Below the pieces are notes generated by a model. That model was not told where the DNA came from. It made no database searches and saw only the letters and a program-made list of their open reading frames with translations. The translations under genes were made by a program, and so were the position numbers. A DNA stretch of 64,000 bases from a virus, in the IMG/VR virus record IMGVR_UViG_3300037277_000110, positions 1 to 64,000 of that record. The stretch is one strand, 5' to 3'. This document shows, piece by piece, positions 1 through 60,506 of the stretch (position 1 is its first letter; each line of letters starts with the position of its first letter).

Positions 1-79
1 AGTAAGTTAATACCTTGTGGGTATAATAGATTTCAAATAACGTTTTAATACTATATTGTTTAACCAAAAATCAAAAGTC

Positions 80-244
80 ATGAGTAAAAATGAATTAAAA
101 TTACGGACTCTTCAATTAAAGAAGAAAAGGGAAGCAAAGAAAGCTATGGTTTATGTGTATGCTTTTACCGGTTTATTTATCGGGTTCTGGGTTGTAACGG
201 CAGTTATCCGATTGGGCGAACACGCTGAAATATTCTACAGATAA
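80..244 (+). CDS. Small single-pass membrane protein (54 aa)
   Basis: ATG at 80 after an A-rich leader (ORF track starts at 56); basic N-terminus then hydrophobic VYVYAFTGLFIGFWVVTAVI. Confidence 0.6.
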   Translation: MSKNELKLRTLQLKKKREAKKAMVYVYAFTGLFIGFWVVTAVIRLGEHAEIFYR

Positions 245-318
245 GACATTATTAACCGTATTTGGAATTTACCAGGGTTCGATTCCCTGGTTCGGTTCTA
301 ACACTTAAAACTTAGATT

Positions 319-1051: not shown

Positions 1052-1124
1052 CCTGTTTAACCGGTCCCCAGTCCGTAAAATTGCGAGGGCTCCCCTTGTG
1101 GGGAGTAAACAAACTTAAACATAT

Positions 1125-3934: not shown

Positions 3935-4416
3935 GGTCAGACCTATATTTCAAGTTTTATCTTACAGAACGTCAAACAGTTATTAATACTTGCATTTACT
4001 TAAACCTATCCGAAACAGCTCTTAAATACTTAGTTGCTTCATGGGTTTATGTAACAAGTAAGAGGACTAAGGAGAACTTGTTTTGTGCTAATGATTTGAT
4101 ACCTATTGTTAAGCTTATTAATCCTGGGTATAAATACGAGCATAAAAGCCTTAAGAATGACGTAATGGACATATTAGAGCAAACCGGGTATATTAAAGTA
4201 GCATATCAAGAACAGCACCCAGGTTCTCCTAAGAAGTTCTATGAGCTTGTTTATGATAAGATCTATGAGTTCTTTAATATATCTCTTGTGTTTCATCAGG
4301 AATACGTAAAGAGGTATAAGATCAAAGGCCCATTTGGTGTGATTCCTAAGCTTAAACAGTATCCTAAAATAAAGCGTGATGTTTTACAACATATTAAGAG
4401 TTTAAAAGGGTTATGA
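3931..4416 (+). CDS. Putative winged-helix DNA-binding protein
   Basis: ...VMDILEQTGYIKV...KKFYEL resembles the recognition helix and wing of MarR/PadR-like folds. Confidence 0.4.
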   Translation: MRSDLYFKFYLTERQTVINTCIYLNLSETALKYLVASWVYVTSKRTKENLFCANDLIPIVKLINPGYKYEHKSLKNDVMDILEQTGYIKVAYQEQHPGSPKKFYELVYDKIYEFFNISLVFHQEYVKRYKIKGPFGVIPKLKQYPKIKRDVLQHIKSLKGL

Positions 4417-5390: not shown

Positions 5391-6680
5391 ATGATGAAAA
5401 AACTTGAAACATTAACAAAAGAACAAGAAGACTTAATCCCAATAATCCGTCAAAAATGGCTTGATGAATTTTACAATAATCAGGAAATAGATAAACAAAA
5501 AGCTATTGAACAAATAACTTGGCTATATGAATTTTGTGGTAAAAAGAAGCCTACGATATTTTTTATGGATTCTCCATTAGGATCTCAAATAATAGCCAAT
5601 ATCTGGGCCAATATCGGGGCCAATATCTGGGACAATATCGGGGACAATATCCGGGCCAATATCCGGGACAATATCCGGGACAATATCGGGGCCAATATCT
5701 GGGCCAATATCTGGGCCAATATCCGGGACAATATCGGGGCCAATATCGGGGACAATATCTGGGCCAATATCGGGGACAATATCCGGGCCAATATCGGGGC
5801 CAATATCCGGGACAATATCGGGGCCAATATCCGGGCCAATATCGGGGCCAATATCCGGGACAATATCGGGGCCAATATCGGGGCCAATATCGGGGCCAAT
5901 ATCCGGGACAATATCCGGGCCAATATCGGGGCCAATATCCGGGACAATATCGGGGACAATATCGGGGACAATATCGGGGACAATATCGAATATAGTCAAC
6001 CTTCCTATTATGCTAACATTTCAGACTATGGATGGGTTGGATTTTATGATTATTTTCAATCATTAAGTCATTTTTCAGAATACGATTGGTCAAACTTTGT
6101 AAAATTTAAAACATTACTACAAACAGGAATATATGAATTGTTAACTTTTGAAAATGTTTGTATTGTTTCATTGAAACCAAAAGTAAAACAAGACGAAAGA
6201 AATAGACTGCATTGTGAGGATGCCCCGGCTGTTTTATTTAAAGATGAATTTGCGATGTACTTTTGGCATGGTATATTTGTTCCTGAAAAATGGATTATGA
6301 ATAAAGAGTCAATAACAAAAGAAGACATCATGAAAGAAACTAATGCTGAAAAACGTAGATGTCTTCAGGAAATACTTGGTTCTAATTATGCTAAGTTATT
6401 GGATATAGAATTAATTGATTCAGATACTGACCAATACTCATATCCAATTGAACTTTACAGGACAAAAGAAAAAGACTCGCTTATTGACGAGTTTATTTAT
6501 TTTCTTCATGTAACTTGTCCATCGACCAAAAGAGAGTATTATTTATGCGTTCCTGAATGTAAAAATTGTTGGGAAGCCAAAAGTTGGACTTTCCGGAATG
6601 AAAAGATCGAAATACGGCACGGTGACTGTGCATTAGTTAATCTTAAAAAAGAATTTAATCAACCAATTTACGAATCTTAA
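5391..6680 (+). CDS. DUF6745-like protein with internal tetrapeptide repeats
   Basis: N-terminal KLETLTKEQ...W, DSP motif, repeats, C-terminal [34 protein letters not shown]. Confidence 0.75.
5595..5987 (+). repeat. About 33 tandem 12-bp units G[AC]CAATATC[GCT]GG encoding [AD]NI[GRW]
   Basis: Directly visible; 32 full units plus GACAATATC. Confidence 0.98.
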
Positions 6681-58693: not shown

Positions 58694-58927
58694 TTATTTT
58701 AGTTTTCTCATTACTCGGTTAATATCAGACACTTCTTCATCCCTACCATCCGTATAGCATATTAAGAAGGTTCTTTGGCCGTTTTCTATTTTCTCACTTA
58801 TTGCATTTACGGTCTTATCTTCACCTCCAAACTCATCTTGATAAGTCTCTCCAAGGGCTTTTACTTTACAAAAGTTACCTTGAGGTGTTACTTCTTTGTC
58901 GTATTCTATTATTTCTATAATTTTCAT
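58694..58927 (-). CDS. Hypothetical protein
   Basis: ORF track. Confidence 0.55.
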   Translation of the reverse strand: MKIIEIIEYDKEVTPQGNFCKVKALGETYQDEFGGEDKTVNAISEKIENGQRTFLICYTDGRDEEVSDINRVMRKLK

Positions 58928-58941
58928 TGAGTTTGATTTAT

Positions 58942-58978
58942 AAAAAAGGCCCGACGAGTATCACTACTTTGTCGGACC
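58942..58978 (-). terminator. Intrinsic terminator
   Basis: GGTCCGAC/GTCGGGCC stem plus T6 on minus strand. Confidence 0.75.
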
Positions 58979-59045
58979 GTAAACCTAAATGTGTTTCATG
59001 AGTAAAAACTTTTTAACCAAAAATCTTAAACAAAGGAAGTGTCTT
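58942..59045 (-). ncRNA. Candidate 3'-UTR-derived antisense sRNA
   Basis: Exact 13- and 14-nt complementarity to the start region of the ORF at 80. Confidence 0.45.
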
Positions 59046-59050
59046 ATTTT

Positions 59051-59356
59051 TTATCCTGCAACTTTTATCTTATGTTTTCTAACATGTTCTTTATACATTT
59101 GATCTCGTAGTAAGTCAAGTTGAATATTAAAGTCATTGATTATAACCTTTCTAACAGACTCTTTAGCTTGTTTAAATGTTTTTACAGCTTTAGTCCAACC
59201 CATTTGATATCCTTTTTCTAAACTATCTGAGTCATAACAATTAGGATTAGGTTTTGAGGTTGTAATAGTAGGTGTACTATCCTTTTCATTTGTCATGATA
59301 GGATATTGTCTAATTTTATAGTTTAGACCAGTAGGATTTGCTAGATACCTTTTCAT
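59051..59356 (-). CDS. Hypothetical protein
   Basis: ORF track. Confidence 0.5.
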   Translation of the reverse strand: MKRYLANPTGLNYKIRQYPIMTNEKDSTPTITTSKPNPNCYDSDSLEKGYQMGWTKAVKTFKQAKESVRKVIINDFNIQLDLLRDQMYKEHVRKHKIKVAG

Positions 59357-59381
59357 GTTTTTTTGCGAAATTTAATAAAAA

Positions 59382-59437
59382 ATGTTTAATAACATAACAA
59401 AATTTTATTAACTTTAATATTTAAAATATTATTTTTG
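59382..59437. promoter_or_regulatory. Divergent control region: operator ATGTT-TAAT-AACAT and + strand TATTTTTG
   Basis: Strand switch between late and replication modules. Confidence 0.6.
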
Positions 59438-59458
59438 ACCGATGATTAATTAATCAAT

Positions 59459-59695
59459 ATGGAAGAACAAGAAGAAATCGATTTACTCCCATTCTTATCT
59501 AAACTAAATAATCATCTCGGAAGAATAATGTACAAAGTTGACCACAAAATAGAACTTTCGGTAGATGAAGACGAACTCATAAAAGAGCTTTATATATGTT
59601 ACAGAGAAAATAATTTACAAACCCTTAATAATTTCAATAATAATAAAACAAGAAATGGAAAAAGTAAAATTAAATTTGAACCAGGAGATTCTTAG
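59459..59695 (+). CDS. Hypothetical protein
   Basis: ORF track. Confidence 0.5.
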   Translation: MEEQEEIDLLPFLSKLNNHLGRIMYKVDHKIELSVDEDELIKELYICYRENNLQTLNNFNNNKTRNGKSKIKFEPGDS

Positions 59696-59951
59696 TATTA
59701 GTGGTAAACCGTTCCCTTATCCAGAAGGCAATCTTACTATCAAAATGGCTATCAAAATAGCTATTATAAATGCTGACATGGATAAAAAAGCTCCTGATGA
59801 AAAGTACAATGCGTATAAGACCGCCATGCGTATCGAAAAAGGAGAAACTGACTTTCTACCTGAAGAATGGTCTAGTTTTAAAAGAGCCGTAGGTCTTATT
59901 TTTGGACCTGAAATAGTCGGTTTTGTTTGGGACGCAATAGCTAAGGTATGA
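59655..59951 (+). CDS. Hypothetical protein
   Basis: ORF track. Confidence 0.6.
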   Translation: MEKVKLNLNQEILSISGKPFPYPEGNLTIKMAIKIAIINADMDKKAPDEKYNAYKTAMRIEKGETDFLPEEWSSFKRAVGLIFGPEIVGFVWDAIAKV

Positions 59952-60229
59952 GACGGGCTCATATAAGATTATTGACCAGAAGAACTAAAAAAGTCCTTAA
60001 TATTTCTTTTGAAATTATAACCGGATATCACCCAAGGGATGAAAAAGAAATCCGAAAAGAGAATATTAAATACATATTTTCTAACACACTACAACTTATG
60101 GAAGACGTAATAAGGGAATATGATTCTTGTACAAGTATTATTAGAGACCAAGAACAGGCTAAGTTAATTACACTTCAAAAACTATCAATGCCTAGTGAAC
60201 AAGAAAAGCTGTTGAAAAGGCAGATATGA
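59948..60229 (+). CDS. Hypothetical protein
   Basis: ORF track, ATGA overlap. Confidence 0.5.
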   Translation: MRRAHIRLLTRRTKKVLNISFEIITGYHPRDEKEIRKENIKYIFSNTLQLMEDVIREYDSCTSIIRDQEQAKLITLQKLSMPSEQEKLLKRQI

Positions 60230-60278
60230 TTTTGAGATTATACAATCAAGATATTCATAAACTAACAAACAGTTTAAT

Positions 60279-60506
60279 ATGAACACTAATCCACTAGAAG
60301 GAGTGTCCAAAGAGGACTTTGAATATATAAAAAATTACGACAAACGTCCAGAAAATATGTCCTTTGAACTATTTAAAAAGCTTCAACGGTTAATCAAAAA
60401 GTTAAATAGAAAACGTAAAGGTCAACTTGTTTTTAGTAGTGATTCGGACACTAAGTTTGGACCCGGGAAAACCTACAGAAAAAATGATATCACAAAAAAT
60501 ACGTAG
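60279..60506 (+). CDS. Hypothetical basic protein
   Basis: ORF track. Confidence 0.55.
   Translation: MNTNPLEGVSKEDFEYIKNYDKRPENMSFELFKKLQRLIKKLNRKRKGQLVFSSDSDTKFGPGKTYRKNDITKNT

Follow-up and report, generated by a model that had tools for sequence, protein, structure and literature searches.

The untranslated tail of one mRNA in an uncultured peat phage is exactly complementary, in two separate blocks, to the translation-initiation region of another gene of the same phage, transcribed from the opposite strand. The link consists of block 1, TCATGAGTAAAAA, and block 2, TTTAACCAAAAATC. Each occurs on the + strand both at the start of ORF 80-244 (locus A) and in the 3′ untranslated region (3′ UTR) of a minus-strand gene for a 101-aa protein (locus B; Table 1). 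Because the blocks are + strand direct repeats, a minus-strand RNA running from 59050 to 58942 is complementary to + strand mRNA 59-90. It is plausible, though unproven, that this tail is a 3′-UTR antisense regulator of ORF 80-244, and going by the sequence we place that reading only a little short of an even chance. In favor of a real RNA-RNA link are the anatomy of the locus, the placement of the match at a start codon and on the antisense strand that is transcribed, the length of the 3′ UTR and the rarity of such a pair in shuffled genomes. Low sequence complexity, the swapped order of the blocks, unremarkable pairing energy ranks and the large number of windows scanned weigh against it.

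Genome and host type

The window, by which we mean the whole 64,000-nt stretch of DNA that was analysed, comprises bases 1-64000 of a 73,799-bp record (IMG/VR IMGVR_UViG_3300037277_000110). The last 164 nt of the record (73636-73799) repeat its first 164 nt (window 1-164) with 3 mismatches, so the nominally linear record represents a circular or terminally redundant genome whose unit is ~73,635 bp. Read through the junction, locus B is 14.7 kb upstream of locus A, rather than 59 kb away as an earlier note on this DNA had proposed.

The genome has a GC content of 33%. An SD-like motif precedes just 4 of the 100 called genes, and operons are headed by TAnnTTTG boxes. A TAnnTTTG -7 box combined with SD-less starts is the promoter and initiation style of Bacteroidota. 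The scarcity of SD motifs, together with these promoters, suggests a Bacteroidota-type host. The phage is contained in 24 sequencing runs, all 24 of which are peat or permafrost DNA metagenomes.

Table 1. Features at locus A and locus B, in window coordinates
Feature	Positions	Strand	Description
Block 2	59..72	+	Within the 31-nt spacer upstream of ORF 80-244, 5′ UTR -21..-8
Block 1	78..90	+	Spans the ORF 80-244 start codon, -2..+11
ORF 80-244	80..244	+	Putative target; 54 aa, basic N-terminus, one transmembrane segment
Intrinsic terminator	58942..58979	-	Predicted fold: GC-rich stem-loop 58948-58979, then U6 58942-58947
Block 1 complement	58996..59008	-	UUUUUACUCAUGA in RNA; would pair with -2..+11 over the AUG
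Block 2 complement	59012..59025	-	GAUUUUUGGUUAAA in RNA; would pair with ORF 80-244 mRNA -21..-8
First part of 3′ UTR	59026..59050	-	Contains hypervariable patch 59030-59043
101-aa gene	59051..59356	-	ORF; its mRNA carries the candidate antisense 3′ UTR; monocistronic

Two blocks shared by distant loci

Both blocks are identical at the two loci, as first reported, and each is found at these loci only, genome-wide, save for a copy at 73694-73725 that belongs to the terminal overlap. Locus A reads block 2, AAAAG, block 1 (32 nt in all) and locus B block 1, CTT, block 2 (30 nt). No reverse-complement copy of either block exists in the genome. Searches that tolerated as many as 2 mismatches placed neither block in a family of dispersed motifs, and near-copies are not above chance expectation. 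After the blocks are masked, the flanks of loci A and B share no similarity, which makes an old duplication unlikely; descent of the two loci from a common ancestral sequence was rejected on this ground. The swapped order of the blocks, described in the earlier note, is confirmed.

Rarity of the match

We scored two non-overlapping exact matches of at least 13 nt that join distant loci within a set span, whatever their orientation. With a span of ≤32 nt, such double matches arose in 2 of 1376 order-1 and 0 of 1224 order-3 Markov shuffles; an earlier run at ≤35 nt had given 1 in 493 Markov shuffles. The real genome holds exactly one double match of ≤32 nt span. Within this genome the block pair is rarer than chance, at ~0.1% of shuffles for the observed tightness. 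The frequency grows as the span is relaxed, to ~0.6% of shuffled genomes at ≤40 nt, ~3.8% at ≤60 nt and ~16% at ≤100 nt. Of single 13-mer pairs the real genome has 380, of which 212 are direct and 168 are inverted, versus ~290 in shuffles, and locus B itself has three further 13-nt matches elsewhere in the genome. A shuffle null had been put forward as the control for this match, and its outcome is divided: the tight double match withstands it, whereas pairs at the looser span of ≤60 nt appear in ~4% of genomes and single 13-mers are common.

When the comparison was restricted to intergenic regions versus start regions, a double match appeared in 1.4% of 1000 shuffles. Single matches of 12 nt between intergenic and start regions are ~3 times as frequent in the real genome as under this restricted null, an excess attributable to promoter and leader motifs shared between genes. 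Reverse and complement decoy genomes yielded trivial local mirror or hairpin doubles only, in too few comparisons for calibration. The search from which this case came covered ~250,000 windows, and at ~0.1-4% per genome chance cases are expected in hundreds or more.

So, is the match a coincidence? Two chance k-mer matches may simply adjoin in A/T-rich, low-complexity sequence, in which case locus B would be an ordinary 3′ UTR with its terminator. We regard this as a substantial possibility, clearly short of probable. The abundance of single 13-nt matches, at locus B as elsewhere, is what it would lead one to expect, as are the A5 runs present in both blocks and the abrupt edges of the match, beyond which the flanks show no likeness. 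By chance, a swapped arrangement is as likely as a collinear one, whereas descent or a designed duplex would be less expected to produce it. ORF 80-244 is not the top energy-based match of the tail, rates of 4-16% at spans of 60-100 nt are far from negligible, and the number of windows examined was large. What chance accounts for poorly is the ~0.1% shuffle rate at the spans actually observed (30 and 32 nt) and the placement of the pair, which falls on a start codon region at one end and, at the other, on the antisense, transcribed, ORF-free strand of a long 3′ UTR. Natural variants, described below, also hit the sequence beside and between the blocks and not inside them.

The transcript carrying the candidate antisense tail

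The 101-aa gene is the first of a minus-strand block and is read from a divergent promoter region at 59357-59458, where an ATGTT-N4-AACAT palindrome at 59382 abuts a -7-like box, TAAATTTC. Its homologues form four protein clusters at 62-98% identity, and the protein is without a Pfam, PHROG or Atlas family. The candidate RNA had been called late, a timing without support, since its carrier gene is transcribed singly from a divergent promoter region.

Between the stop codon of the 101-aa gene and the terminator lie 71-72 nt of ORF-free sequence. The minus strand has no ORF of at least 30 aa in 58928-59050, in agreement with the original description of an ORF-free stretch running up to a terminator. 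The 3′ UTR is unusually long: 72 nt separate stop codon and terminator here, versus 5-35 nt at other gene-end terminators. The terminator stem is predicted to consist of an 8-bp GC-rich helix and an inner 4-bp helix, and at -17.2 kcal/mol (58979 to 58942) it ranks second strongest on the minus strand in a genome-wide scan. In the predicted fold of the tail, the block 2 complement provides the 5′ arm and the GGUUA loop of a weak 9-bp A-U/G-U hairpin, and the 3′ part of the block 1 complement, ACUCAUGA, is single-stranded just before the terminator.

Downstream, the terminator U-tract and the ATG of the next gene (58694-58927) are 14 nt apart (58928-58941). There is no promoter in this gap, so the GroES-like/glycosyltransferase block that follows must rely on read-through or internal promoters.

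No consensus -7/-33 promoter for a separate small RNA was found inside 59050-58996. A late promoter for such an RNA was considered, using the ATGTT-N4-AACAT copy at 59072, which lies in the 3′-terminal part of the 101-aa gene; the canonical spacing of 16 nt leads from this palindrome to GATAAAAA instead of TAnnTTTG, and the candidate was rejected for that reason. In a search of Rfam, no family exceeded its threshold at locus B, the best hit (E 0.07) being an unrelated eukaryotic lncRNA model.

The minus-strand reading of block 2, GATTTTTG, agrees with TAnnTTTG at 5 of the 6 specified positions and is without a -33 element. This raises the alternative that the blocks are composite sites for a phage or host protein on DNA or RNA, shared by the two loci. 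The genome does make use of dispersed operators and promoter boxes, and the ~3-fold excess of 12-mers shared between intergenic and start regions indicates that common regulatory motifs exist. Each block, however, is present in two copies only, lacks dyad symmetry and near-copies, and has no correctly spaced -33 element; at locus A, moreover, the GATTTTTG box would fire antisense into the peptide-gene operon. We therefore consider a shared protein-binding element very improbable.

The putative target

ORF 80-244 has homologues in six protein clusters at 65-98% identity, all with a basic N-terminus and one transmembrane segment, and by this conservation it is a real gene. The description of the target as a 54-aa single-TM peptide is thereby borne out. 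The peptide matches no known family in Pfam or the Atlas, and no toxin family. The ORF is gene 2 of a + strand operon with -7 boxes at 73451 and 73491 (full-genome coordinates). Its start region has a minimum free energy of -6 kcal/mol over 101 nt, weaker than that of shuffles, and is accordingly modelled as unstructured; it is also SD-less.

Several other elements surround this gene. An HTH_3 (Xre/cI-type) gene at genome 72488-72751 (-) is divergent from the peptide-gene operon, and the stretch between them contains two TAnnTTTG boxes (73451-73498, +) and a 9-codon mini-ORF, MSTKNLKYV. In its layout, this divergent region resembles an immunity or switch region. The stop codon of ORF 80-244 is followed immediately by a tRNA-like minihelix (window 262-300, +), made of a perfect T-arm, CCAGGG-UUCGAUU-CCCUGG, and an acceptor-like stem on which it stacks. 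No tRNA is called here by ARAGORN, and the minihelix might act as a processing signal, replace a terminator or represent an att-like tRNA 3′ fragment. Further along the + strand operon of the peptide gene, directly 3′ of ORF 653-1051, there is a match to the twister-P3 self-cleaving ribozyme (RF03154; window 1054-1121, +), with 54.1 bits versus a gathering threshold of 39.9 and an E-value of 5.6e-9.

Natural variation and relatives

Only one related DNA was matched, the contig L002 from JGI metagenomes (2223 nt, 97.9% identical). Searches of IMG/VR, INPHARED (DNA and tblastn) and GTDB genomes gave no usable relatives with the 101-aa protein, its GroES-like neighbour or the peptide, either singly or as alignments. 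Homologues were found at the protein level, at 62-80% identity: P0002-P0004 and P0011 for the 101-aa protein (62-66%), and P0006-P0010 and P0021 for the peptide.

Over 58713-60505, L002 differs from the window at five positions only (59030, 59032, 59036, 59040 and 59043). All five are substitutions within 59030-59043, a 14-nt hypervariable patch directly beside block 2. The blocks and the terminator are identical in L002, an uninformative agreement, as the 1.8 kb around them are identical too. At locus A, two peat runs carry a 1-nt insertion in the 5-nt AAAAG linker between the target blocks. In the reads of four runs, no locus B differences are among the best-supported differences listed, besides a low-depth contig joint in run X4 (L003 1042, equivalent to window 59041; 80% likeness, flagged unreliable). 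That both the patch and the linker insertion avoid the blocks weakly suggests constraint on the blocks themselves.

More distant relatives bear on block 2 at locus A. The N-extended gene calls of P0009 and P0021, at ~75% identity, retain LFNQKSK, the translation of nt 56-76, and diverge further upstream; P0010 differs at window nt 71-73. From these protein N-extensions, the target copy of block 2 appears to be kept in relatives of ~75% identity. Since the linker insertion breaks the upstream frame, this stretch would be a conserved untranslated element and not coding sequence.

The variation data also touch on the possibility that locus B is a non-functional relic of recombination. Under this scenario, the 3′ UTR received a copy of ~30 nt from the start region of the peptide gene, for example by way of a tandem-duplication junction or template switching, or else the blocks are module-boundary sequences of mosaic recombination. 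The order of block 1 before block 2 at locus B is the junction expected from a tandem copy of block 2, linker and block 1, and the hypervariable patch adjoins block 2. The joint at window 59041 hints at a recombination boundary, but it rests on the single unreliable contig described above. Several events would be needed, as the linkers differ (CTT versus AAAAG), the flanks retain no decayed homology, and perfect identity of both blocks in the absence of selection implies a very recent event. We judge such an origin improbable.

Another reading concerns the + strand at locus B, where ORF 58998-59102 might be a paralogue of ORF 80-244. Both begin with MSKN and share a basic-then-hydrophobic layout (a basic N-terminus and hydrophobic tail in ORF 58998-59102), and the five L002 SNPs add no stop and preserve the net charge. 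Yet this 37-aa ORF finds no match, itself included, among 1.8 billion representative proteins; it has no + strand promoter, and 52 nt of it run into the converging 101-aa gene. At locus A block 2 is untranslated, whereas at locus B it would have to be coding, and the likeness ends with the blocks. A paralogous relationship is in our view scarcely credible.

Pairing energetics and a proposed mechanism

At 37 °C the predicted duplex energies are -14.2 kcal/mol for block 2 and -14.3 kcal/mol for block 1, and at 15 °C each helix reaches about -20 kcal/mol. When the 109-nt tail and the start region are cofolded, the net gain is -14.5 kcal/mol, via the block 1 helix. Among 100 phage start regions, ORF 80-244 ranks 7th by simple duplexfold and 5th by cofold, with the two helices not modelled jointly in either. 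A target scan had been suggested as a check, and by simple duplex or cofold energies it does not single out ORF 80-244. The unremarkable rank arises because AT-rich RNAs offer many long imperfect duplexes.

Under the antisense reading, the mRNA of the 101-aa gene (59356 to 59051) would continue through its 71-nt untranslated tail and end at the terminator (58979 to 58942). The acting RNA may be the tail within the full ~0.4-kb mRNA or a processed 3′ fragment of ~70-110 nt, and we infer that it accumulates in the cell. The tail would then base pair in vivo with the translation-initiation region of ORF 80-244, 14.7 kb away on the opposite strand, through two independent perfect seeds, of 13 bp at the AUG (-2..+11) and of 14 bp in the A-rich stretch without an SD where the ribosome lands (-21..-8). 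A single helix of the two would be enough to block 30S binding and thereby repress translation of the 54-aa peptide.

The swapped order of the seeds makes one continuous duplex impossible. The helices may bind one at a time or as a strained two-helix complex; if both form at once, they would probably lie side by side, bridged at opposite ends by the mRNA linker (5 nt) and the tail linker (3 nt). In its most specific form, the proposal is that a Bacteroidota-type phage turns the untranslated end of a regulatory-gene mRNA into an antisense RNA that needs no chaperone and has two seeds, which in crossed order clamp the SD-less start of a conserved early membrane peptide by side-by-side helices. 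Judged from the sequence, we hold this full picture to be unlikely. The earlier note had read the locus as a 3′-UTR-derived small RNA. The anatomy on which that reading drew has stood up, and the match is rare in shuffles; the 59-kb distance, the late timing and the analogy with type I systems have not stood up.

Relation to known antisense systems

A close parallel is offered by the 3′-UTR-derived and intergenic base-pairing sRNAs of Bacteroides thetaiotaomicron, such as GibS, which acts Hfq-free through a two-region extended seed (R1, R2) across target start codons (PMC7366714). GibS is AT-rich and largely unstructured, ends at an intrinsic terminator, and operates in a host lineage without Hfq, ProQ or SD-led initiation (PMC7366714). 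The candidate tail is likewise AT-rich and terminator-ended, with two seeds in a start-codon region. GibS, however, has its own mapped promoter and experimental proof, whereas the candidate is a predicted RNA. The candidate also differs in being the tail of a phage mRNA with a phage target, and in having perfect 13- and 14-mer seeds in swapped order.

The c4 antisense RNA of phages P1 and P7 uses a′/b′ two-site pairing, in which two short, separate complementary blocks act at the ribosome-binding region. In PMC8546580, which cites Citron & Schuster 1992, c4 is described as a trans-acting repressor of Ant synthesis. Like c4, the RNA proposed here would be a phage RNA processed from a longer transcript that represses translation of the phage's own gene by way of two separate blocks. 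Unlike c4 and its target, which share one operon and one strand, the two loci are on opposite strands in different transcription units, 14.7 kb apart, and locus B matches no Rfam family, c4 included.

The target had also been likened to type I toxins, such as those of Hok/Sok and TisB/IstR. There is a resemblance in that a small hydrophobic single-TM peptide has a start region complementary to a candidate RNA. The analogy nevertheless fails on the position of the antisense element, which at 14.7 kb is neither adjacent to nor overlapping the peptide gene, and on the 5′ region of ORF 80-244, which is predicted to be open and not folded to sequester the start. The 54-aa peptide further differs in its long basic N-terminal segment.

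Should the antisense reading be true, an uncultured peat phage would offer a clean and easily tested example of self-regulation after transcription, in a host type without SD-led initiation or classical sRNA chaperones. The example would be compact, with one target, reached through two perfect seeds, and a defined terminator. The still small set of self-silencing phage RNAs (P1 c4, P4 CI) would gain a member, and mRNA 3′ UTRs would be shown to silence a phage's own genes. The crossed-seed tail would then be an mRNA-to-mRNA switch joining two distant control regions. If the match is instead a coincidence, it calibrates how tight two-block matches need to be in AT-rich genomes before follow-up.

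Other repeated elements of the genome

The ATGTT-N4-AACAT palindrome noted at locus B occurs nine times, at window positions 4379, 12087, 33173, 38593, 41902, 48105, 59072 and 59382 and at genome position 73404. Four of the nine copies precede a minus-strand TAnnTTTG box by exactly 16 nt and so occupy the position of the -33 element. A tandem repeat with a 12-nt period, made up of GGGCCAATATCG and GGGACAATATCC variants, occupies window 5590-5990 inside ORF 5391-6680 (429 aa) and gives rise to a 4-residue repeat protein.
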